DNA of 64,000 nucleotides from a virus. Below, in pieces: positions 5,020-36,124 of this stretch (its first letter is position 1; every line of letters begins with the position of its first letter). Below the pieces are notes generated by a model. It had not been told where the DNA came from. It searched no databases and was given only the letters and a program-made list of their open reading frames with translations. The position numbers were made by a program, and so were the translations under genes. The stretch lies in the IMG/VR virus record IMGVR_UViG_3300001041_000002, positions 37,420 through 101,419 of that record, one strand, 5' to 3'.

Positions 5020-5436
5020 ATGATATTAAAAACGAAAAACCCAGCATATATGTGTTGGAAGATGATGAAAAATAGATGCTCTAATCCAAATGATCCAAAA
5101 TTTAAAAACCATGGAGGCAGAGGAATAACTGTATGTAAAGAGTGGGTTGAATCATTTGATAGATTTATCCAAGACATAGGAGAAAGACCCGAAGGATATA
5201 CTATAGACAGAATTGACAATAACTTAGGATATTGCAAGGAAAATTGTAAATGGTCATCATATACAGAACAAAACAATAATAAAAACAACAATATACGATT
5301 AACATATAACGGTGAATGTAAAACTGTTTCTGAGTGGGCAAAACACTTAAATATGAATGTACAAACACTATTTTGGAGGATAAATAATAATAAAACGGTC
5401 TCTGAAATATTATTTAATCATACCCAGAAACAATAA
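5020..5436 (+). CDS. HNH-family homing endonuclease
   Basis: GGRGITVCKEW...TIDRIDNNLGYCKENCKW...EQNNN motif; inserted between two RNA genes. Confidence 0.85.
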   Translation: MILKTKNPAYMCWKMMKNRCSNPNDPKFKNHGGRGITVCKEWVESFDRFIQDIGERPEGYTIDRIDNNLGYCKENCKWSSYTEQNNNKNNNIRLTYNGECKTVSEWAKHLNMNVQTLFWRINNNKTVSEILFNHTQKQ

Positions 5437-10411: not shown

Positions 10412-10859
10412 TATAGAGGGAGATACTATATATTTAAAAGAACAAAAGTCTCTATATAAAGATGTATCTGAATTATTATCAGATTATTCAAACAGAGAAC
10501 ATCCGTCAACTTACTGGAGATCAGACGACTCGTTGCAGTGTACTGAAGACAGAAATAGATCTTTTGATGATTTATTATTACTATGTAAAAATTACTTTCC
10601 AAATACAACAGTAAATGAAATTGTTAAATTTTATGTTAATGAATCAAAATCAGCTAAAAACGAAGACAAAATTGCATATTGTTCTTATTGTAGTGGGGTT
10701 CGGAAACCAGTAGTTCATCCTAAAAATGCAATTAAAAAAAACGTTAAGAACGTAAGTGCTATAAATGATTTCTTCTACTTTCCATCAATAAGATACGATA
10801 TTAAAGAAAATTCACAATTCTCTCCACAAGAACTAATTGATATGGTCGATGATGATTAA
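10395..10859 (+). CDS. Cys-rich hypothetical protein (paralog of 13236-13685)
   Basis: Shared C..RSF.DL..LC.NY.P and YCS.VRK motifs; start uncertain. Confidence 0.7.
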   Translation: MKEKSDIEGDTIYLKEQKSLYKDVSELLSDYSNREHPSTYWRSDDSLQCTEDRNRSFDDLLLLCKNYFPNTTVNEIVKFYVNESKSAKNEDKIAYCSYCSGVRKPVVHPKNAIKKNVKNVSAINDFFYFPSIRYDIKENSQFSPQELIDMVDDD

Positions 10860-11970
10860 TAGGGTAATAAAGCGGTTAGAAGAGAATAGAGAGCGCAGGT
10901 TAAATGGAGATATAATCGCTATACCTTGGAGTTTACCAAGATTATCTAGAGTATTACCTGGGATTATCCAAGGTCGCTTCAACTTAATATCGGCTAATGC
11001 AAAAGTTGGGAAAACTCAAATTACGGACTTTCTCTATGTATATCAGCCAATCGAGTGGTATATGAATAATCGCACTAAGGGTGTTAGTTTAAAGATACTC
11101 TATTTTTCCTTAGAAATGTCAAAAGAAGAGAAGATTATGGCTGTAATAAGCTATAAGTTATTTAAAGACCATGGTGTTATTATATCTCCAGAAAATTTAC
11201 AATCAATGTTTAATGGATATATTCTTGATGAAAAGATTTTACATATAATAAAATCAGCCACATTCCAAACTTGGCTTGCAGAATTTGAAAGTATTGTTAC
11301 ATACCATGATTCAACTAGGAATCCATTTGGTATTTACAACGCTGTAAAAACATATGCAGAGAATAATGGTCACTATGAGTATAAAGAAATGGATTGGCAA
11401 GATCCCACTACTGGAGTAGTTTCTAAAAAAAAAGTTATTGACTATTATGTGCCAAATGATCCAAATGAATACGTTATCATCATAGTTGATCATATATCAT
11501 TATTGGCCCCAGAGAAGGGCGAATCCTTGCGTGAGGCTATGGGTAGATTCAGTAGTGAATACTGTCTTAAAATGCGTGATAGATGGCGTTATATACCAAC
11601 TATAGTTCAACAGCAAGCTGCTGATTCTGAGAAGCAAGAGTTTACTAAATCTGGTGGAACTATTATTGATAAAATTAAACCTAGCGCTGATGGATTGGGA
11701 GACAACAAAGCTGTTGGTAGAGATGTAAACCTAATGCTTAGCTTATTTTGGCCTGCAAGATATAGTATTAAGGAGTATAATAATTGGGATTTATGTCGAA
11801 TTGGTCATAATCACCGAGAACTACTCATTAACCTTAATCGTAATGGTATTTCATCAGCATCTATTGATCTACTGTTCTTAGGCGCCTGTAATTATTTTGA
11901 AGAACTACCACGTGAGCCTGATGAAAAAACATATCAAAGAATACAATATTTGAACAATTTGACGGTATAG
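10849..11970 (+). CDS. dnaB: DnaB-like replicative helicase
   Basis: Walker A ANAKVGKT, FSLEMS, Walker B IIVDHI. Confidence 0.88.
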   Translation: MMINRVIKRLEENRERRLNGDIIAIPWSLPRLSRVLPGIIQGRFNLISANAKVGKTQITDFLYVYQPIEWYMNNRTKGVSLKILYFSLEMSKEEKIMAVISYKLFKDHGVIISPENLQSMFNGYILDEKILHIIKSATFQTWLAEFESIVTYHDSTRNPFGIYNAVKTYAENNGHYEYKEMDWQDPTTGVVSKKKVIDYYVPNDPNEYVIIIVDHISLLAPEKGESLREAMGRFSSEYCLKMRDRWRYIPTIVQQQAADSEKQEFTKSGGTIIDKIKPSADGLGDNKAVGRDVNLMLSLFWPARYSIKEYNNWDLCRIGHNHRELLINLNRNGISSASIDLLFLGACNYFEELPREPDEKTYQRIQYLNNLTV

Positions 11971-12540
11971 ATGGAAGGAATAGAGTTAATAGAATTAGTG
12001 GACGATATAGAAGAAGAGTGGAGGGCTATTCCTGGATTTGAAATGTATTTAGTTAGTAATTATGGAAGAGTTTATACAAAACATCGCAATAAACTTCTTT
12101 CCCCTGCAGATAATGGTCGTGGATACAAAATGGTGTCAATTAGTAAAAATAACATAGCAAAGTTGCATTTAGTACATAGATTAGTTGCAATGTTATTTAT
12201 ACCAAATCCATTAAATCTTCCAGAAGTTAATCATAAAGAAGGATTAAAATATAAAAATAGAGTTTTTGATCTGGAGTGGATGACAAAATCCGAGAATATG
12301 CAGCACGCTGTAGATAATAAATTGCTTTTGCCACACTGGAAGGGAGTATTTGGTAAAAACCATCATAATAGCATAAAAGTGGATCAGTTTTCTAAATCTG
12401 GAGAATTAATTGCTACTTATGATTGTGGAAAAGAAGCAGAAAGAAAAACTGGTATTTTACAGTCTAATACAAGCTCATGTTGTACTGGCAAATTAAAGTC
12501 TGCTGGAGGATTTATATGGAAACATTCTGTAATTAAATAA
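11971..12540 (+). CDS. NUMOD4-HNH-NUMOD1 homing endonuclease
   Basis: EEWRAIPGF..YLVSNYGRV, VHRLVA..FIPNP..VNH..N...LEW, C-terminal SAGGFIWK. Confidence 0.9.
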   Translation: MEGIELIELVDDIEEEWRAIPGFEMYLVSNYGRVYTKHRNKLLSPADNGRGYKMVSISKNNIAKLHLVHRLVAMLFIPNPLNLPEVNHKEGLKYKNRVFDLEWMTKSENMQHAVDNKLLLPHWKGVFGKNHHNSIKVDQFSKSGELIATYDCGKEAERKTGILQSNTSSCCTGKLKSAGGFIWKHSVIK

Positions 12541-15835: not shown

Positions 15836-16861
15836 ATGTTTTCAACACGACTTATTCTTAACAAACAAAATCTTCTAGATAAAGTATCTACTTATCAAAT
15901 ATTTAGTACTTACGCTAGGAATTTTAAGCAGGTGGGTATAGCGTTCAAATCAGAGTTTAGAGATGAAAAGTCTCCTTCGTGCATGATAGAAATGATCGGT
16001 GGAGACCTTTTATACACAGATTTTGGGGAAGGCTCCTTCCGCGCAATAGAATTCGTCATGAGGAAGTTTGGTTATACGTTTAGAGATGCTATTAGGAAGA
16101 TAAACAGTGATTTTAATGTTGGACTAATTGACAACGGAGATTCAGTCATTACATCTTCAGAGGGATATATAGCTAATAGACTGTTTCAAAAGCAGGATTT
16201 TGTAGAAAAGTCAACAACCGAAATAGAAGTGAGATACGCTCCATATAGAGATGAAGATCTTGAATACTGGGGTCAGTTCGGTTGGACTGAAGAAATGCTT
16301 CAGAAGGCTTCTATTAGGCCAATAGACTTTTACTGGTTGACTATGGAACATAAGGATATTAATAGAATGCCATTTGCTGTACCACATGAATTGGCATATA
16401 CTTACGATTACTATCGTCACTCTGGTATTTACAGGAGGAAGTTATACTTCCCATTACGAGACGGCAAGCACAAGTGGATTTCTAACGTAGATAATACTGT
16501 AATACAAAACTGGGATTTACTTCCCAAAAATGGAGGAGATCTACTGTTTATAACTAGTAGCAAGAAGGATACTGGTGGATTCTTTAGAATATATAATCAA
16601 TGGAATGCTTGTGCACCAAATAATGAAGGTACGTTTATTCCGGAAAAAATATTTCTAACCAAAATTAAGCCACGATGGAAGAGAATTATTATTTGGTATG
16701 ACAATGATAATACTGGAATAATAAACTCGCTTAAATGGGCTAAAAAGCACCAAATTGAGGCCGTATGGAATCCATTAAGATGTCCTTATAAAGACCAGAG
16801 TGATTTAATCAAAGCTGATGGGCTTAGGGAATTTAATTATCAACTACAAAAACTAATATAA
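15836..16861 (+). CDS. DNA primase (crAss-type TOPRIM)
   Basis: RDEKSPS..TDFG N-terminal domain, FITSSKKD, WYDND, KDQSD. Confidence 0.85.
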   Translation: MFSTRLILNKQNLLDKVSTYQIFSTYARNFKQVGIAFKSEFRDEKSPSCMIEMIGGDLLYTDFGEGSFRAIEFVMRKFGYTFRDAIRKINSDFNVGLIDNGDSVITSSEGYIANRLFQKQDFVEKSTTEIEVRYAPYRDEDLEYWGQFGWTEEMLQKASIRPIDFYWLTMEHKDINRMPFAVPHELAYTYDYYRHSGIYRRKLYFPLRDGKHKWISNVDNTVIQNWDLLPKNGGDLLFITSSKKDTGGFFRIYNQWNACAPNNEGTFIPEKIFLTKIKPRWKRIIIWYDNDNTGIINSLKWAKKHQIEAVWNPLRCPYKDQSDLIKADGLREFNYQLQKLI

Positions 16862-20079: not shown

Positions 20080-20893
20080 GCCCCAGATTAGAACCAAAAA
20101 TTTCAGTGCTGATGATTTAAAAGCAAGAAATGCTGGTATTGGTGAATTTCCAATGAGAGCTATAGTTAGGTTTGGCAGTAGGACAACTACTGCTGAAGCC
20201 TATCCGAATGCTTACGGAGTCCGACCAATTATTGAAGTAAATACACCAGAGGCTTGTCATAATAGTGGGGATAAAATCCTCATGAAAGAATGTTTTGATA
20301 GAGCTGGAGTTAAGACTGCAAAATGGAAATTACTTATTTCAACAATAGGCAATATTGATGAATGGGATATCTATCCTGCAATAGTAAAGCACAAAAATTC
20401 ATGTAAGGGTAAGGGAATTTATCTTATTGAAAATAGAGAAGATTTGGTTGAGTTCAATAGGCTTAACAGACTTTCTGATTATATCATCGAGCAATATTTA
20501 CCTTATACTAAGGAGTATAGGCTGCATGTAACTAAAAATGGTTGTTTCTACACTTGCCGTAAAATGCTTAAATCTGATGCAGAAGAACGCTGGCATCGTC
20601 ATGACACTAATTCAGTTTGGATCATGGAAGAAAATCAAGCCTTTGATAAGCCGAAGAATTGGGATGATGTAGTCTCTGAATGTGTCAAGGCACTGAATGC
20701 AGTTGGATTGACAGTAGGTGCTTGTGATATTAAGATTCAGTCTGAGAAGGGTAAGCGTGCTGATTATGTTCCTGATTTTGTGATACTTGAGATCAACTCA
20801 GCACCCAGTTTTGGCACTGTAACATTAGAAAAATATCGTCAAGAATTACCTAAAATTATTAATGACAAAATAGCTAATTATGGGAAAGAGTAA
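20066..20893 (+). CDS. ATP-grasp ligase (RimK/YheC-like)
   Basis: GDKILMK, GKGIYL, EQYLP..KEYRLH, GACDI, LEINSAPS. Confidence 0.88.
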   Translation: MRLFKPQIRTKNFSADDLKARNAGIGEFPMRAIVRFGSRTTTAEAYPNAYGVRPIIEVNTPEACHNSGDKILMKECFDRAGVKTAKWKLLISTIGNIDEWDIYPAIVKHKNSCKGKGIYLIENREDLVEFNRLNRLSDYIIEQYLPYTKEYRLHVTKNGCFYTCRKMLKSDAEERWHRHDTNSVWIMEENQAFDKPKNWDDVVSECVKALNAVGLTVGACDIKIQSEKGKRADYVPDFVILEINSAPSFGTVTLEKYRQELPKIINDKIANYGKE

Positions 20894-22049
20894 TTTCACT
20901 ATATGGGAATTAATTAAAGATAAAAATCCAAAATACATGATTCAAGAGTGCATGATGCACATAGCAAATTGCACTTCAGATTTTAAAATAATCATACCAC
21001 ATGAATGGCTTAACGACAAATTAATAAAGGAAGATGTTTATAGGTGGCTAGAAATTGGCAATAAGACACTATTCCCAGCCAAAATAAGGGAAATAACAAT
21101 TTCAGAGAAAGACACGAAATTGTCTGTAGGAGCTTGTAGAATGAATGGAATTTACTATGGATTAAACGTTGAACCCAGAAAACTGAACCAAAGAGAAAAA
21201 TATAGATCTTCAGATGTTTTAAGTATGCCATTGGGGGCAATAAGATCTTTTAGTGTTTCAATAGAAGAACTAAAGAGTAGTTCTTATAGAAGCATAGGAT
21301 TTAATGTTTCATCTAACAGGCTAAAAGTTAGGTCTATTGGTGGATTAATAGACTTAAACAACTCAAGTGATACGTGGGGAGCACATGTCGATGATTTATG
21401 TGTGTATGGTACAGATGAATTACTTAAAGACTATGTACTTAGAACTTATGATGAACTATCGAACAGAGGGTGGAGGGCTCTTCCTGCATATGAAGTTACT
21501 ATTGACTGTAAAAATGTCATAAGTAAAACTCATAGGTTATCAATACTATCTTTCTACAGATATTTATATAGTAGCAGGTATCCAGATGTTGTATATAATG
21601 CATTAAGGTTGGTATCTATTGGTATCGATCCATGGGAGGCACTGTACGCATCATTAAGCAAAATCAATGGTAATTATTATAATTATTATTCACTACTTTC
21701 TGCTCCAGGATTCAAATCTATAGAAAAAGTTTCCAAAGATCTTAAAATATATGATTCAGTAAACAAATCTTTTTCAATAGATCGACATGATAAGCATTTG
21801 TATGTAGATTTAAGTGGATCGGAGGAGAATATTATTGAGAATGTTAATAATTTTGTTGAAAAGTCATTAACAGGAGCTAAAGCAGAAGATAAATTCAGGT
21901 TTATATGTATAAATGCATCCAAAACATTGACTAATAATAAAGTTTATACATCGGCGTGTTTATCATATGATAAGAAAAAAAATTTTTTGTGTGGTGATGA
22001 TTATAAATATAGATACTACTCATCAAGTAGATTTAAGCAAGTAAAATAA
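20880..22049 (+). CDS. hypothetical protein of the ligase cluster
   Basis: 389-aa ORF. Confidence 0.7.
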   Translation: MGKSNFTIWELIKDKNPKYMIQECMMHIANCTSDFKIIIPHEWLNDKLIKEDVYRWLEIGNKTLFPAKIREITISEKDTKLSVGACRMNGIYYGLNVEPRKLNQREKYRSSDVLSMPLGAIRSFSVSIEELKSSSYRSIGFNVSSNRLKVRSIGGLIDLNNSSDTWGAHVDDLCVYGTDELLKDYVLRTYDELSNRGWRALPAYEVTIDCKNVISKTHRLSILSFYRYLYSSRYPDVVYNALRLVSIGIDPWEALYASLSKINGNYYNYYSLLSAPGFKSIEKVSKDLKIYDSVNKSFSIDRHDKHLYVDLSGSEENIIENVNNFVEKSLTGAKAEDKFRFICINASKTLTNNKVYTSACLSYDKKKNFLCGDDYKYRYYSSSRFKQVK

Positions 22050-23353: not shown

Positions 23354-25320
23354 AATTATTCAATTCAATAATATTAATACTAATAATTCATACGGCTATA
23401 TATAGAACACTAGGATATAAAACACCTGGAATACTATTTTGTGGCCTTTTTGGATATATCGGAAAGCGTAATAATCATAATTTTAACTGGGATAAATTTA
23501 ATCATCTCGGCTTAGATAATGATGAGCGCGGCGGAGACTCCGTGGGAAGAGCTGTTGGAGATAATATTGTTAAGTTTGTAAATAACAATAAAGTTAAGAC
23601 AACATATCAAGAGTATGTTATAAATCATAAAAATGATGAGCCATCACACATAGCTATTGGACACACCAGAAAGGCTAGCGTTGGAGTTGTTAATGTTACT
23701 AATGCTCAACCCATAGTAATAGATCTTCCAAATAATCAAAAGTTTGTAATGGTTCATAATGGGACTATATATAACTGGGAGGATTTAGCTAAAAGTCATG
23801 GTGTAGAGAGCGAAGGTAAAACTGATAGCATGGTTCTCGCTGAGATAATAGTAAAAGATGGATATGATGTACTTAGAGAATACAATGGAGCTGCAGCTTT
23901 AATAATAAAAGACGATAGAGACGCAGATACATTAAAGGTGTTTAAGGGACAGTCAAAAAACTATTCGTCAAAACTTGAAGAAGAGAGACCATTGTTTTAT
24001 TATCAAGAGAACGAAACCAGTATGTATATTTCATCAAAAGAAGATGGACTATATTTTATTGGAGGACTTCCAGATAATATCGTTGACTTCAATTCAAATA
24101 TGCTATATACAATCTTTGAAGGACAAATAATCAATCAAGAAGAATACGATAGATCTGATTGTTCTTCATGTAGGATATGGCCTAAAACCAGTAACACGAA
24201 CTTCTACGGAACAAGATATAGCGCGTACGATGATTATGAAGATTTGAGAGGTCGTAACGAAGCCGTGCCATATACAAATAAGCCGAACATGAGGAAAGAT
24301 ACTATTCCGACATCAAGTGATGTTAGAAAGATCATTCAGGCTAAGCTTAGGTATTGGTTTTGTAAATCTGGAAGTAGCCCATACTATGCAAATGGTATAA
24401 TAACTCTCGATGAAGAAGGTCAGCTTTGGGGAAAAACCAGTAAATCTCTGGGTAAAGAATATTATTTTTACGCTGGGATAATGCTTAAAGACTCCAAATC
24501 ATATTATGAAGTAAAGGAGAAGTTTGGCAAGGCAAGGCACTTTATAGACAATGATGTTAATATCTCTGAAATGTGTAAGTATTCTGTATATCCAGTATGT
24601 ACGATTGACTCACAATTACCAGCATATGGGAATATTAAAAGTCACGAATACAAGCTTGGTATCAATGGACAAAAACCGTATTGGATAACATCTTTCTATA
24701 CTGGAACAATTGAACCATTATTTTCTTATAAACGATACCACGTGTATTCAGGGGATCTGGCTAGCACTTTTTTTAATAAAGATGCAAAGACACCAAACCA
24801 TTCAATAATTTCAACTCAAACACCGGCACTACAATCAGAGTTTAAGCCAATTGACATAAATTTAAAAGATGGTATTAGTTCTGATGTTTCAAGAGAACTA
24901 GCAGAAAAAGCAGTAAACAGTGCAATTGAAGTTGTAGGGTTTGCTGGGAATAACGATAAGTCCCCATTTAAAACTCCATACAAAAAAGCATTAGAGGAGA
25001 TCTATGAGGATATCGAAGATGCTGATTACGACTTGAAAAATGATTTCCCAGTAGAAGACGACGACACTATTGACGATGATGATATCGATGATTATGATGA
25101 TTGGGAATCATCAGATTATGTCAGTAAAGTAATCAGCCTTGGTATAGATCAAATATTAAAAAGTATCGATGAAGTAATTCAGGAGATCGAAATGCTTGGT
25201 GTTAGTGGAGAAAATGTTAGTAATGCGTTGTCTAACTTTTATAAACTTCAAGATCCATTTATGAATATAAAAGAATTTAAGAAAAAACCACTTATAATAT
25301 CTTACGATGATCAATTCTAA
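23347..25320 (+). CDS. class II (Ntn) glutamine amidotransferase with N-terminal leader and long C-terminal extension
   Basis: CGLFG at residue 32, RGGDS, GHTRKAS, HNGTI, TDS. Confidence 0.88.
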   Translation: MLELFNSIILILIIHTAIYRTLGYKTPGILFCGLFGYIGKRNNHNFNWDKFNHLGLDNDERGGDSVGRAVGDNIVKFVNNNKVKTTYQEYVINHKNDEPSHIAIGHTRKASVGVVNVTNAQPIVIDLPNNQKFVMVHNGTIYNWEDLAKSHGVESEGKTDSMVLAEIIVKDGYDVLREYNGAAALIIKDDRDADTLKVFKGQSKNYSSKLEEERPLFYYQENETSMYISSKEDGLYFIGGLPDNIVDFNSNMLYTIFEGQIINQEEYDRSDCSSCRIWPKTSNTNFYGTRYSAYDDYEDLRGRNEAVPYTNKPNMRKDTIPTSSDVRKIIQAKLRYWFCKSGSSPYYANGIITLDEEGQLWGKTSKSLGKEYYFYAGIMLKDSKSYYEVKEKFGKARHFIDNDVNISEMCKYSVYPVCTIDSQLPAYGNIKSHEYKLGINGQKPYWITSFYTGTIEPLFSYKRYHVYSGDLASTFFNKDAKTPNHSIISTQTPALQSEFKPIDINLKDGISSDVSRELAEKAVNSAIEVVGFAGNNDKSPFKTPYKKALEEIYEDIEDADYDLKNDFPVEDDDTIDDDDIDDYDDWESSDYVSKVISLGIDQILKSIDEVIQEIEMLGVSGENVSNALSNFYKLQDPFMNIKEFKKKPLIISYDDQF

Positions 25321-25870
25321 AGATTTTACTGTTACAAGTGTATCTGGAAAGCAACTTCCAAGAAACAGATGTAGATATATAAAAAAAGAATACTACGAAA
25401 TAAACGTAGATTGTTTTCTGATGCCAGATAATTGTTGGCACAGGGTCAATAATGGGAAGATAGCTTTTGATAATGAAATCAAACAGTATGTCATGATCGA
25501 AGGCTCTTCTTTAAGAGAGGGTATTATAGGCATTAAAGAAAATGGCGAATTTTTGTTTGGAATGTTTTCTAGTAATCCTGCTAAAAATACAGAAATAGAT
25601 AATATTCCATGTATTTCATATGAAATAGCAGAATCTTTAGGAGCGAAAGAAAGGATCGCCACCGGAACATTTTATACTGAAGAAAAAGCTAAAACTATCG
25701 CTGGATTTAATAATAGGGCCATTCTTAAAAAGTATTCCTTTCCACTAGATTATTCTGCTGGGCCAAGGATAAGAATGTTCTCGGAAGCATATAATCAACT
25801 CTATAAACCAAAAGATTACTATGGTTTAAAACCAGTTTTTGGTAAAGAGCTGGGTAATACTACTTTTGGT
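25307..25870 (+). CDS. amidoligase, exon 1
   Basis: Ends ...NTTFG at the 5' splice site (T25870). Confidence 0.8.
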
Positions 25871-25895
25871 TAAAATAAAAAACACTGCAATATAT

Positions 25896-25926
25896 TTTGT
25901 TTTCTGGGTTTAATATAGTATCTTTG
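25896..25926 (+). promoter_or_regulatory. Bacteroidota sigma-A-type promoter inside the intron
   Basis: TTTG-N19-TATCTTTG matches the -33/-7 consensus. Confidence 0.7.
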
Positions 25927-25954
25927 ATACTTATTAATTCATAAACCAGATTAC

Positions 25955-26788
25955 ATGACTTTAAAATTAAAAGAATTACGTGAATTTACCAATGATGTGT
26001 TATTAGATTTTAATGATGGACTTTTAAAAAAGGACATGGCAAAGAAACATAATACATCTATTGACATTATCTCAAAGTTAATAACAGAAAACGATCTGTC
26101 TTTTGCAAAAAGAAGGCAAATGGTCGACTGGAATCCATTCGAAAATCTGTCAGATCCTAATGTTATGTATTGGCTTGGAATATTGGCTTCAGATGGAGCT
26201 ATATTTGAAGATAGAGTTACTCTTCAGCTTGCAGAAGTTGATCGTGAGTTGGTAATAAAATACCATAAGTTCTTAAAAGAAAAGCCAACACTAAGACAAG
26301 TTGTCTGGAAGGTTGGTGGAAAAAATTTCAATGGATACATGGTTAGCTTTAGAAATAAAGATGTAGTCGAGTTTCTTGATAAGTTAGGAATAACTACAAG
26401 AAAGTCAAATACAATTAGCATGTCATTCCCAGTAAATTCCCATTTTCTTAGAGGACTAATAGATGGAGATGGAACTTTAGAGATTAGAAATATTGAAAAT
26501 AGATTGTTTTCTAGAATAAGATTTGCTACTGCATCTACAGAGATGGCATTAAGTGTAATGAAATTTTATTTGGATAATGATCTTTATTTGAGATATTATA
26601 AAGACTCCGGAGCTCATAGAAAAAGCGCAATTCACGAAATCGTTGTTTCAAGAAGCAGCGATGTTCTAAAGTTATTAGATATGTTGTATAACGACGCTGA
26701 TACTTATATGGAAAGAAAGTATCAAAAAGCCGTCCAAATCAGAAATGTATTGGATAATAACACCTTAAATTCAGGGAACCAGCGTTAG
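25955..26788 (+). CDS. two-motif LAGLIDADG homing endonuclease with N-terminal HTH
   Basis: YWLGILASDG and FLRGLIDGDG motifs; C-terminal YMERKY. Confidence 0.88.
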   Translation: MTLKLKELREFTNDVLLDFNDGLLKKDMAKKHNTSIDIISKLITENDLSFAKRRQMVDWNPFENLSDPNVMYWLGILASDGAIFEDRVTLQLAEVDRELVIKYHKFLKEKPTLRQVVWKVGGKNFNGYMVSFRNKDVVEFLDKLGITTRKSNTISMSFPVNSHFLRGLIDGDGTLEIRNIENRLFSRIRFATASTEMALSVMKFYLDNDLYLRYYKDSGAHRKSAIHEIVVSRSSDVLKLLDMLYNDADTYMERKYQKAVQIRNVLDNNTLNSGNQR

Positions 26789-26940
26789 GAATCCTGAGCG
26801 AAATCTATCCACCAGTAATGGTAATTGAAGTAATGAACTGCTTCTGACAAGTAGATAGAGACGTGCAGAGACTATAATAGGTGCTCCCAAACAGGTAATG
26901 CTGTGGGAGAATGGATAGTCCGAGTGGAGAGAACCACTTG

Positions 26941-27816
26941 TTTGAAATTGAGACCCAGGACGGGTCAATAGCAGAAAGACACCTCATCAGAAACGGTCTA
27001 ATTCCATTGAGAGATGGAAGTCTTAAGCATGACAATATTGAACCATACGAATACACAACTATCCCTCTATCTGGAGAGAAAGGTTTGTACACTATGATTG
27101 ATGTAATGGATTTAATCAAAAAATACACTACGATTGGTGATAGGTGCGCTCTGCATGTCCACATTGGCGGATATAAACCATCAAAGGAATTTGTTGTAGC
27201 ACTACATCGTGTTGTACTGAAAATCCAAGATGAAATATATAGTATGTTCCCAACGAACTATCAATTTACGTCTGACAATGGATGGAAGCAGAAAGATTAC
27301 TGTGCCCCAATTAACGACTTGCGATTATTGAAAAGAAATTCTGTTGAAGAAAACTTCAATGTCATTTTTAATCACTATAGTGGTGGTTATAGTAAGTTTG
27401 TTAACTTTGGTTATTGTAATCATCCTAAAGATGAGGGTAACCGTGCGAAATGGAGCATCCAGGAAAGATATAAAATTGTCAACATAATCCCGTTGATTTG
27501 GGGAAACTCTGGTACTGTAGAATTTCGCGTTCATCCGCCCACACAGTCGCCACAGAAAGTTCTTAATTGGTTGTACATCTGTAATGCAATATTAGCTTAT
27601 GCTTATAAAAATTCAGAAAAAATAGCCAATTTTGCACCATTAACAGACTTAAATTTGCAAACTATCTTCTTTGATGTTTACTCATCATTGTTAGCATCAA
27701 AATTGCTATCGTATGTTGAGTGGCGTAAGGAGTATATGCAAAATATGGACGCTACTGGCAAGAAAGAGCTTGTTGAAGATTTAACTAAAGTAATTCCTTA
27801 CAGCGTTTTATCATGA
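26941..27816 (+). CDS. amidoligase, exon 2 (Amidoligase_2-like)
   Basis: FEIET, DGSL, EYTT, CALHVHIG, TVEFR. Confidence 0.85.
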   Translation, partial: FEIETQDGSIAERHLIRNGLIPLRDGSLKHDNIEPYEYTTIPLSGEKGLYTMIDVMDLIKKYTTIGDRCALHVHIGGYKPSKEFVVALHRVVLKIQDEIYSMFPTNYQFTSDNGWKQKDYCAPINDLRLLKRNSVEENFNVIFNHYSGGYSKFVNFGYCNHPKDEGNRAKWSIQERYKIVNIIPLIWGNSGTVEFRVHPPTQSPQKVLNWLYICNAILAYAYKNSEKIANFAPLTDLNLQTIFFDVYSSLLASKLLSYVEWRKEYMQNMDATGKKELVEDLTKVIPYSVLS

Positions 27817-33441: not shown

Positions 33442-34194
33442 ATGGACGAACAAAATAATCCAAATAATAATTTTGCGTATTCTAGGTTTGATTTGGAACA
33501 ACTTGAGAGATCGATGGCTGATATATCTGGAAACCAAACACAAGCAAATAGTGCTTTAAGTTATTGGATAACTGAAGATTATGCAGACGGTAATTGTGCA
33601 ATAAAAATAAAAAGTAATAACGAAACTAATGAAATGAATTCAAATAATTTCAAATTAAATGTTGAATATACAAATAAGAGTTCAGCATATGGTCACTCTA
33701 GAACAATGAAAGCTTATAGAGTTGGCGACGATAGATCATCTGTATTTAGAGTTGATCAAATACCATTTCCAGAATGCTGTGGAATAACTATACTTAAAAA
33801 TATAGGCGTATCAGACAGAATTTCTAGAATTGAATTCAAAGAAGTGATTGGTCTTGTTATTGATCATTTAATGGATGAAGATCAATACAGTAAAATCATC
33901 ATTTACACTACAGATAATTCAACTTTAGCTAAACAGTTGGCTAGGTTTGACGGAGCATTAATGACTGGATCATTCAGAAATCGTCGTAGCGGAAATATTC
34001 TCGTTGGATTTGAAATTGATATCAATCCAAGCGACATGAATATTAACGAAGACGAACATGATGATGAATTTGATTTAGAGGAATTAGATGAAGAAGATAT
34101 TGATCAAGATGATCTTCATGAGGAAGAAGTTGAACAAGAAAATGCTCGGTCTATCTTTGATTTAATGTCCGCTAAAGATAAAGATTTTCTTTAG
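33442..34194 (+). CDS. hypothetical protein (CCG...FRNRRSGN domain, acidic tail)
   Basis: 250-aa ORF. Confidence 0.7.
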   Translation: MDEQNNPNNNFAYSRFDLEQLERSMADISGNQTQANSALSYWITEDYADGNCAIKIKSNNETNEMNSNNFKLNVEYTNKSSAYGHSRTMKAYRVGDDRSSVFRVDQIPFPECCGITILKNIGVSDRISRIEFKEVIGLVIDHLMDEDQYSKIIIYTTDNSTLAKQLARFDGALMTGSFRNRRSGNILVGFEIDINPSDMNINEDEHDDEFDLEELDEEDIDQDDLHEEEVEQENARSIFDLMSAKDKDFL

Positions 34195-34203
34195 CATACT
34201 CTA

Positions 34204-34983
34204 ATGAACAATCAAATAAGAGATGTGCTTTCAAATAGAGTTACAATTGTTGAGAATATAGATAACTTAGTTAAATATGGTAATGATTTTAAGAAAAATC
34301 TACAACAATTGTCTCTATTTGGAAATTCTATTGAAGCAAAACCAAAGCTGTCAGAAATAAATAATATTAATTATTATGAGGCCGTAACCAAAGAGAAAAA
34401 TATTTTAGGAATATGTTTAACATACAATATCTTTGACAAATATTTTCTAATAAAAAAACGATTTTGCAATAATACAATAAGTTCATTGAATGAGATGACA
34501 GAAGACTGTCCATCTGGAATAATATTACTATCATCAATAAATGATATTGAATACAGAACATCTCTTGCTGGAAATAAATACGCTAAATTACAGTTACAAG
34601 ATTATGACAGCTCGTGTGGTGTGTACTTATGGGGATCTGCGTATCAAAAGAACATAAGCAAGATCTTTAAAGATAGAATTTATCTCATAGAACTTGGTTA
34701 TAATAAAGATAATGAAAGCGTTTTTATCATAAATATAAGGCCTGTTGATGATATAAACCCACAAGAATATATATCTACAATAATTCTAGGTATTGATAAA
34801 TCAAATACTGTTAAAACCAGAGAATATGTTTTCAAAAATATGTTTATGGGCACAACCGGAGATTATAACCTTATATTTAGATATTCAGAAGTAGATTATG
34901 CCGCTCCATACAAAATTATATTTAACGAAGAACATTATCTTTATTTAAAAGATTTAAACATTAATATAGAAATACAAAAATGA
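34204..34983 (+). CDS. stand-alone DNA polymerase III alpha (DnaE) C-terminal fragment
   Basis: QLSLF clamp motif, EKNILGICLT (cf. EKE.LG.Y.S), OB-fold GNKYAKLQLQDYDSS. Confidence 0.7.
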   Translation: MNNQIRDVLSNRVTIVENIDNLVKYGNDFKKNLQQLSLFGNSIEAKPKLSEINNINYYEAVTKEKNILGICLTYNIFDKYFLIKKRFCNNTISSLNEMTEDCPSGIILLSSINDIEYRTSLAGNKYAKLQLQDYDSSCGVYLWGSAYQKNISKIFKDRIYLIELGYNKDNESVFIINIRPVDDINPQEYISTIILGIDKSNTVKTREYVFKNMFMGTTGDYNLIFRYSEVDYAAPYKIIFNEEHYLYLKDLNINIEIQK

Positions 34984-35264
34984 CAGATAAAAATACATCT
35001 TGGAAGATACAAAAGATTACTGAAAGTTTAAATAGTTTACTTCAGTATAAAAACTTAAACTATGGTGATTCAGCGCTAAATCCAATCAAGGTTTTTAGTA
35101 AGTCAGACGCAACGGATAGTATTACTATTAGGCTTGATGATAAAATCAGTAGAATACAGAATTCCAAGGAGTTACGTAAGAATGACGTCGCTGATATTTT
35201 TGGCTATATAGTATTATTATGTGCATCTAAAGATTGGATCTCATTTGAAGAATTTAAAGATTAA
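34980..35264 (+). CDS. DUF1599 / nucleotide-modification-associated domain protein
   Basis: KN..YGDS, RLDDKISRI, DIFGYIVL. Confidence 0.75.
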   Translation: MTDKNTSWKIQKITESLNSLLQYKNLNYGDSALNPIKVFSKSDATDSITIRLDDKISRIQNSKELRKNDVADIFGYIVLLCASKDWISFEEFKD

Positions 35265-35269
35265 TAATT

Positions 35270-36124
35270 ATGAGCGAATTACAACAAGAAGGCAAGATAG
35301 TTGGAACCAATGTTAAGAATAATTCTATAGAAGAAGAGATTGATCAGTATCTTGGTGAATCTGGTAAAATACTTGAGGCTGCTTTTAGGCAAACCTCTGC
35401 ATCTAGTCAGTGGACATCAATTGTTCAATCAGCACCTATTCCATATTATATTCCAGACTCTAGATATAAAGTAGGAGTAGATCCTGGTGATCGTCCTAAA
35501 TCCACTAGAAATGATTACTTTGACATTCCAGTAATAAAACCAGGATCAGGACTTCGTGCTAGTATGGAGACGGTAAATGTTGACAACACAGGTAAATACA
35601 ATTGGTCTTCTGAGTACGAAAGAATGGCTGATTCAATAAAGAAAAAGTCGCCTAAATATATGTCACAACCTATTCCTAAATATAAAGATCAAATTAACAT
35701 TAAAGATGCATTATCATCATTTAGAGATCTTAATGAAAAAGATGTTAATAAATTTATATTAACGGGATCAGTAGCTTTATTTGTTCAAAATAAGATAACT
35801 AGAAATCGATTCAAAGATGTTGACATTATCTCCATGTCTGATTTTGAGATGGATGATGACATGGTTGTTTATCCGAGATTAAAATATGAGATTATAGATG
35901 GTGGTGGAGAAATGAGATCTATAGTATTTAATAATGTTTTATTCGACATATTCAGCTATAATCCAGAAAAAGAGATTGATGTTATTGAAGTTAAGTTTGG
36001 TAAAGAAACTTATTTATGTCAAGACTGGAAACAAATAATTATGGCAAAAATGAGGATGATAATTCCAAAGATGAAAGATCATGAAGAGATATTCAACAAT
36101 TGCATAGAGATTAATTTTAAATAA
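35270..36124 (+). CDS. hypothetical protein with C-terminal nucleotidyltransferase-like domain
   Basis: LTGSVAL...KDVDII (GS, DxD) with a third Asp in LFDIF. Confidence 0.6.
   Translation: MSELQQEGKIVGTNVKNNSIEEEIDQYLGESGKILEAAFRQTSASSQWTSIVQSAPIPYYIPDSRYKVGVDPGDRPKSTRNDYFDIPVIKPGSGLRASMETVNVDNTGKYNWSSEYERMADSIKKKSPKYMSQPIPKYKDQINIKDALSSFRDLNEKDVNKFILTGSVALFVQNKITRNRFKDVDIISMSDFEMDDDMVVYPRLKYEIIDGGGEMRSIVFNNVLFDIFSYNPEKEIDVIEVKFGKETYLCQDWKQIIMAKMRMIIPKMKDHEEIFNNCIEINFK

Follow-up and report, generated by a model that had tools for sequence, protein, structure and literature searches.

Phages usually copy their genomes either with a replicase of their own or with that of the host, which they borrow through contacts made by a helicase or an initiator. 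In the alpha subunit of bacterial DNA polymerase III (DnaE), an internal motif binds the cleft of the beta clamp and an OB domain contacts the template ssDNA. The C-terminal domain of the subunit binds domain V of tau, tying the polymerase to the clamp loader and so to the helicase. A polymerase homologue can also act as an adaptor: ImuB, of the ImuA'-ImuB-DnaE2 mutasome, is catalytically dead and carries a clamp motif. Phage SPP1 is linked to the host machine by its helicase, which contacts host tau and primase. In the available text of two studies, SPP1 replicates in Bacillus subtilis with the host Pol III holoenzyme via its own helicase system (PMC3561973, PMC5737612). Furthermore, crAss-like phages without a DNA polymerase gene have been described (Yutin et al., 2021, PMC7886860). 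DnaE goes unmentioned in the available text of that study, which accordingly describes no DnaE-derived gene in these phages (PMC7886860).

Here we describe a protein of a crAss-like phage, hereafter the DnaE tail, that is truly homologous to the DnaE C-terminal region, from just past the HhH domain to the C-terminus. The homology is assigned because of sequence searches and a structural model with a pLDDT of 90. The tail is a domain-level DnaE derivative that appears to serve as an accessory replication protein of the phage. Its likeness to ImuB is that of a polymerase-derived, non-catalytic protein that would link another polymerase to the beta clamp via a QL[SD]LF-type motif. However, ImuB belongs to the Y family and is bacterial, whereas the tail belongs to the C family, is viral and carries OB and tau-binding-type domains. 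The phage also resembles SPP1, as far as the available text on SPP1 goes, in providing the helicase and the initiation or priming functions and leaving polymerase, clamp and clamp loader to the host (PMC3561973, PMC5737612). It differs in having a dedicated copy of the polymerase's docking module, which the same text does not report for SPP1 (PMC3561973, PMC5737612). A limited search of the open-access literature for stand-alone DnaE tails, phage tau-binding domains and crAss sliding clamps returned nothing relevant.

The window, by which we mean the whole stretch of 64,000 nucleotides that was analysed, comprises bases 37420–101419 of a complete 101,419-bp record with direct terminal repeats and a CheckV completeness of 100%. 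The portal, TerL and major head protein match crAss-type PHROGs, as expected of a crAss-like phage, and the lack of a polymerase gene fits the available description of such phages by Yutin et al. (PMC7886860). The minus arm holds ORFs of 3600 and 1382 aa, and a plus-strand arm of ~41 kb carries the genes for replication and nucleotide metabolism. Pfam and PHROG scans, which took in most plus-arm ORFs of at least 100 aa, identified a DnaB-type helicase, an AAA_24 ATPase, a primase, an exonuclease VIII-like nuclease, a Holliday-junction resolvase-like nuclease, a class II-like ribonucleotide reductase (RNR) and a Nudix hydrolase. The arm also encodes a spore-photoproduct-lyase-like radical SAM enzyme, homing endonucleases and a glutamine-amidotransferase/ligase module. 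The genes that would drive the phage fork are the following (coordinates here and below are window positions):

10837..11970, plus strand: DnaB-type replicative helicase (Pfam DnaB_C; orthologues in the related genomes G001, G002 and G008)
15836..16861, plus strand: DNA primase (phrog_12622, E 2.9e-36)

The replication arm had been noted earlier to have no recognisable PolA, PolB or DnaE catalytic gene, and this holds for the complete genome. Whole-genome searches gave no match to DNA_pol3_alpha, PHP, DNA_pol_A or DNA_pol_B, nor to SSB (PF00436), the beta-clamp C-terminal domain or the clamp-loader delta' family. No homologue of the PolB and PolA enzymes of related phages was found in this genome either. 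With no detectable polymerase of its own, the phage must rely on a host replicase. The largest plus-arm ORF without any match has 389 aa (20880–22049). It lies inside the glutamine-amidotransferase/ligase module and is without a match in Pfam, PHROG, PDB or Atlas, and G001 alone has a conserved copy (33% identity). We considered this ORFan as a hidden sliding clamp and rejected it because no match supported the assignment.

The replication arm also bears marks of mobile elements. An amidoligase gene (25307–27816) appears split by an insertion with a LAGLIDADG homing endonuclease: the ORFs at 25307–25873 and 26911–27816 both match one 479-aa ORF of G001, and the ORF between them (25955–26788) has a LAGLIDADG_3 domain. 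Most likely, this insertion represents a group I intron or a comparable mobile element. There are also two genes for HNH homing endonucleases, at 11971–12540 and 5020–5436. In G001, the closest homologue of the copy right behind dnaB neighbours the primase gene, so this copy appears mobile within the replication arm. We rejected the idea that an HNH gene splits dnaB, as the 377-aa DnaB is full length compared to those of G001 and G004.

The DnaE tail is encoded in the plus-strand arm and has the following parts:

34204..34983, plus strand: stand-alone DnaE C-terminal module (DnaE tail), 259 aa, ATG start, TAA stop
34210..34302, plus strand: N-terminal helical hairpin, residues 3–33 (secondary structure of the model, alignment with full-length DnaE, invariant columns)
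34306..34320, plus strand: predicted clamp-binding motif QLSLF, residues 35–39 (family conservation, DnaE alignment)
34372..34491, plus strand: helical region, residues 57–96, with conserved KE..LG...TY (E64 and G69 invariant; family alignment, model, DnaE alignment)
34507..34743, plus strand: OB fold, residues 102–180, with the conserved loop S-K-x-G-N-x-Y-A-K (weak PF01336 match, structural matches)
34756..34980, plus strand: C-terminal domain, residues 185–259, beta-alpha-beta-beta-alpha-beta (fold of the Pol III alpha tau-binding domain in a domain-only model)

An AF2 model built from a 36-sequence alignment (pLDDT 90.4) places these elements in the order two helices, a low-confidence motif loop, three helices, the OB barrel (102–180) and the C-terminal domain (185–259). 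The hairpin is the counterpart of the post-HhH helices of the DnaE beta-binding domain and contains R12, invariant in the family. The QLSLF peptide sits between helices in a flexible loop (residues 34–56, pLDDT 56–70). It is an exact clamp-client consensus of the QL[SD]LF type in an exposed flexible segment, which predicts clamp binding. Structural matches of the OB fold include the OB domains of DnaE1, PolC, RPA and SSB, and two of its residues (G123 and Y126) are near-invariant. The protein ends in NIEIQK, without the acidic tip of SSB proteins. An earlier note had described this ORF as 259 aa with a clamp motif, an OB fold and a C-terminal domain but no catalytic part, and the sequence and fold matches bear this out. 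The same note had the ORF start just before QLSLF, whereas the start codon lies 34 residues ahead of the motif.

Sequence searches link the tail to genuine replicases. A phmmer search of the PDB aligned tail residues 7–168 with residues 945–1106 of Thermus aquaticus (Taq) Pol III alpha (E 0.008). An exhaustive HMMER search of 1.84 billion representatives returned 124 matches at E<=1e-3, about 50 of which are proteins of 220–290 aa that align from their own residue 1–10. The long matches are genuine DnaE proteins with PHP, DNA_pol3_alpha, finger, HHH_6 and OB domains, in which the part matching the tail starts right behind HHH_6 and extends to the C-terminus. For example, residues 1225–1443 of a full-length DnaE of 1482 aa (P0058) match the tail with an E of 3e-8. 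Conversely, a profile of four full-length DnaE proteins, run at maximum sensitivity against the six frames of the genome, had the tail ORF as its sole match (E 2.4e-22), over profile positions 899–1114 only. The QLSLF of the tail aligns with the internal clamp motif of full-length DnaE proteins (QMSLF, QVSMF, QISMF, QLSLF and QNSLF; Q[MVILN]S[LM]F).

The fold of the tail points to the same source. A Foldseek comparison with DnaE, which had been proposed as a check, gave Taq Pol III alpha as the best matches of the model (E 9e-9 to 2e-7 over ~260 columns). VIA-align matched the model to residues 919–1099 of Mycobacterium tuberculosis DnaE1 (Z 13.5) and 948–1201 of Taq alpha (Z 10.2), and the OB domains of SSB and RPA were weaker structural matches than DnaE. 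The last 77 residues, modelled alone, reached a pLDDT of 92.5, and the top five Foldseek matches of this domain were all Taq alpha. The C-terminal domain superimposed on residues 1122–1200 of Taq alpha (Z 6.0, rmsd 3.5, 69 aligned) and 1070–1155 of E. coli alpha (Z 5.5, rmsd 2.7, 72 aligned), which are the tau-binding C-terminal domains of these proteins. In a Foldseek-independent search of 48,161 PDB representatives, these two C-terminal domains were the only matches of the lone domain at Z>=5.

The tail thus shares its order of elements (post-HhH helices, Qx[SD][LM]F, OB fold and tau-binding-type domain) with the C-terminal region of DnaE1-type alpha subunits (Taq ~945–1220; E. coli ~900–1160; M. 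tuberculosis DnaE1 919–1099). Unlike DnaE, it lacks the PHP, palm, thumb, fingers and HhH domains, is a separate 259-aa phage gene and has an identity to DnaE of ~12–30%. The PHP domain (PF02811) is absent from both the tail protein and the whole genome, and the palm, thumb and fingers families (PF07733, PF17657) are unmatched in either. The HhH domain (PF14579) is absent from the tail, which begins where the HHH_6 domain of full-length DnaE ends. The tail protein is therefore derived from DnaE by homology, but it is not a polymerase.

A TerL search yielded 180 related IMG/VR contigs that allowed us to compare the presence of the tail and of polymerase genes. G001 (77 kb, TerL 74% identical) encodes a 254-aa tail orthologue (45% identity) in a block with the same arrangement as in this genome: a 292-aa ORF, the tail, a 94-aa ORF overlapping it by 4 nt, and a 261-aa nucleotidyltransferase (NTase). 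The replication arm of G001 lies wholly on the contig, is collinear with that of this genome and has no polymerase. The tail is absent from the complete genomes of more distant relatives (TerL 57–60% identical), three of which (G002, G003 and G004) encode a PolB of 660–690 aa (phrog_1252, E 6e-141) and a fourth (G008) a PolA. In all four, the polymerase gene is upstream of DnaB, AAA_24 and primase. The tail block of this phage (G000) and G001 is downstream of RNR, ~24 kb further along, and has no counterpart in G002 or G008. These different positions indicate that the tail is not an in-situ replacement of the polymerase. As a separate observation, an ORF of ~315 aa in G002 (G002:C1:53022-53966) is the best match to the 624-aa RNR (59% identity), and the RNR may be interrupted or split in that phage.

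Clamp-type peptides follow the same division. We ran the pattern Q[LMIVF][SDNTE][LMI]F on four proteomes (G000, G001, G002 and G008) and found one such peptide in a replication protein of each, against a chance expectation, estimated from residue frequencies, of ~1 per proteome: in the tail of G000 and G001, in the PolB of G002 and in the PolA of G008. Two further matches in the four proteomes are in ORFs that are not replication proteins. The PolB of G002 (L167:820-2841) and those of G003 and G004 (L168, L169) carry QMNIF or QINIF ~55 residues from the C-terminus, with QMNIF in G002 and QINIF and QMNIF at the same place in G003 and G004. The PolA of G008 (L166) has QLDLF at residue 264. We considered whether the relatives' PolB ends in a DnaE-like C-terminal domain and rejected this, as only the motif is similar (hhalign probability 3%). 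This distribution fits a lineage without a clamp of its own and suggests that all of it relies on that of the host, the genome searched for clamp families being that of G000. The clamp hook would then reside on the polymerase where the phage has one and on the tail where it has none.

The tail belongs to a family of ~50 clusters of proteins of ~250–290 aa with a common N-terminus and start position. The clamp motif is the best-conserved feature of the family. In an alignment of 36 members (21–69% identity to the query), the invariant columns are R12, Q35, F39, E64 and G69, and the near-invariant ones are S37 and L38 (both >=90%), Y74, G123 and Y126. The dN/dS values against two orthologues, at ~0.36 and ~0.17 with dS saturated, indicate that selection on the tail is purifying. 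Together, the conservation of the family, its common length and start, the invariant motif and the dN/dS values exclude the pseudogene decay that the earlier note had named as a check. The hairpin, motif and OB fold are retained in a sister subfamily of ~227-aa proteins (at least 11 clusters at 50% identity), which lacks the C-terminal domain, its proteins stopping ~30 residues past the OB fold. This means that tau binding cannot be universal to the family and that motif and OB fold suffice for the core function.

We also looked for the genomic setting of more distant members of the family, two of which, P0013 and P0029, come from a 95-kb ENA contig and an 88-kb NCBI contig. Scans of viral contigs seeded with family alignments and proteins (A1, A3, P0012, P0013 and P0029) recovered only the full-length DnaE of a 208-kb phage, or nothing. 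A metagenome scan for the tail returned only a 1.2-kb contig, and a scan of genome contigs for the family had no match. Two weak partial matches to the tail (H1 and H2, in unannotated records) and none to P0029 were found in the GenBank phage collection. The tail was also absent from 80 loci reached via the neighbouring RNR, from 4 reached via a 191-aa neighbour and from 40 further TerL-related fragments. The genomic context of the tail is that of two genomes, this phage and G001.

Immediately downstream of the tail is a small gene:

34980..35264, plus strand: 94-aa gene, phrog_1485 (function unknown), start overlapping the tail stop by 4 nt

The overlap is also present in G001 and makes translational coupling of the two genes possible; a functional link between them is only suggested. 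The 94-aa protein is much better conserved than the tail (72% versus 45% identity to the G001 copies). Two genes downstream of the tail is a 284-aa ORF (35270–36124), conserved in G001, whose C-terminal half resembles minimal nucleotidyltransferases of the Pol-beta superfamily (DUF6036, AbiEii, aminoglycoside NTase). It has the signature GS...DxD (LTGS...DVDI), and its N-terminal 140 residues have no match. Directly upstream of the tail, a 250-aa ORF of unknown function (33442–34194) carries two strongly conserved motifs, DQIPFPECCGI and FRNxRSGNxLxGFEID, along with an extended poly-acidic stretch at the C-terminus, and ends in a TAG 9 nt 5' of the tail ATG in the same frame. We rejected this ORF as a DnaE piece or tail paralogue (hhalign probability 0.3%). 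Readthrough of the TAG into the tail is unlikely, as the corresponding genes of G001 are in different frames with a 1-nt overlap and a suppressor tRNA is missing from the phage. Scans for promoters and terminators gave no informative result.

We propose, with about an even chance of being right, that the tail serves to dock the clamp and the clamp loader/Pol III of the host onto phage forks. It would be the free-standing, non-catalytic docking end of a replicase alpha subunit. The QLSLF motif would hook host beta clamps, the OB fold may contact the template ssDNA and, in this subfamily, the C-terminal domain could hold host tau and thereby the clamp loader and the Pol III cores. In this manner, the protein would draw the host replicase to forks that the phage helicase and primase drive and would hold it there, an effect of recruitment rather than of inhibition. 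A coupling factor is the most economical reading because the phage supplies a helicase and a primase and no detectable replicase, clamp or loader. In favor of docking, the tail is homologous along its whole length to the C-terminal region of DnaE, in sequence and fold. Its clamp motif is the most conserved feature, lies in a disordered loop and aligns with the genuine DnaE motif. Furthermore, the tail is present in two polymerase-less phages and absent from the relatives with PolB or PolA.

Several points weigh against docking. A true adaptor needs an interface with a phage protein, such as the helicase or primase, and none is evident. On its face, a free alpha tail and host alpha should be competitors for tau and the beta cleft, and the tail should, therefore, inhibit Pol III. 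The sister subfamily manages without the C-terminal domain, the tail is not at the site of the relatives' polymerase, and a clamp-type peptide is expected about once per proteome by chance.

The competition with host alpha is the premise of the best-surviving alternative, an unlikely one in our judgment, in which the tail is a dominant-negative decoy that fills the clamp cleft and the alpha-binding site of tau, strips host alpha and stops replication of the host chromosome. Its domain content equals the part of alpha that contacts beta and tau, and no interface on the phage side is evident. Clamp-binding proteins of small size that block host replication have been reported from staphylococcal phages. 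However, a phage with no detectable polymerase, clamp or loader would also be blocked by a stoichiometric poison of the Pol III holoenzyme. There is no obvious need for a decoy to keep the OB fold, and the gene resides among replication and nucleotide-metabolism genes, outside the early host-takeover region. The earlier note had offered a hijacker of the host replisome and a decoy side by side. The context favors the hijacker or adaptor, because a phage without its own replicase needs the enzyme that a pure decoy would poison.

The sister subfamily, which keeps only the hairpin, motif and OB fold, lends itself to another explanation that we regard as quite unlikely: a clamp-tethered ssDNA-binding factor in which the motif and OB core act in an SSB-like or primer-hand-off role and the C-terminal domain is optional. 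One setting for such a factor would be recombination-dependent replication, together with the phage exonuclease and AAA_24 ATPase. The exonuclease VIII-like and AAA_24 genes are indeed present, the genome has no match to an SSB family, and the OB loop S-K-x-G-N-x-Y-A-K is conserved. Yet the OB domain of DnaE is reported to bind ssDNA only weakly, and the tail shows no sign of oligomerisation and no SSB-type acidic C-terminal tip. The fold of the C-terminal domain is also well conserved in the subfamily of the tail.

The nearby nucleotidyltransferase raises the prospect, very unlikely in our view, that the tail is an accessory or processivity subunit of an unrecognised phage polymerase, such as the NTase at 35270–36124 or another ORFan. 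The C-terminal half of this NTase is minimal-nucleotidyltransferase-like with the GS...DxD signature, the gene block is conserved in G001, and the DnaE palm is in the Pol-beta-type nucleotidyltransferase superfamily (PMC11348598). Because the palm belongs to the same superfamily, the NTase is also the obvious partner candidate in a narrower version, highly improbable, in which the tail is the clamp/tau-docking subunit of a split minimal replicase with a phage-encoded catalytic partner. However, the NTase matches small MNT-type enzymes rather than polymerases, has no fingers or thumb, and its Atlas model is poor (pLDDT 0.55). The two genomes are collinear throughout, which makes the adjacency uninformative, and the replication-arm ORFs of unknown function are all of 389 aa or less.

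That the tail is half of a split DnaE, with the rest outside the window as once suggested, or the decaying remnant of a complete phage dnaE is refuted at the level of sequence: only the tail is present and the genome does contain homing endonucleases and a split gene elsewhere, but six-frame searches of the complete 101,419-bp genome revealed no other DnaE piece or PHP domain in any frame, the upstream ORF is unrelated to DnaE, the start and length of the family are conserved under purifying selection, and, in agreement with the earlier failure to see an intein motif, no intein-like arrangement was found in the genome and the tail starts directly with DnaE-homologous helices.

In this lineage, which has no detectable polymerase, the phage has kept or captured only the docking end of a host-type replicase, as a conserved separate protein. 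If the tail is instead a decoy, it would represent a new class of replication shut-off protein. If recruitment is true, docking by the tail would be a route of replisome takeover for which we found no published description, and nature would have supplied, in the tail, a compact scaffold for probes or inhibitors of the interfaces of beta clamp and tau in Bacteroidota. Recruitment would also explain how some crAss-like phages manage without the PolA and PolB genes that their relatives often swap.
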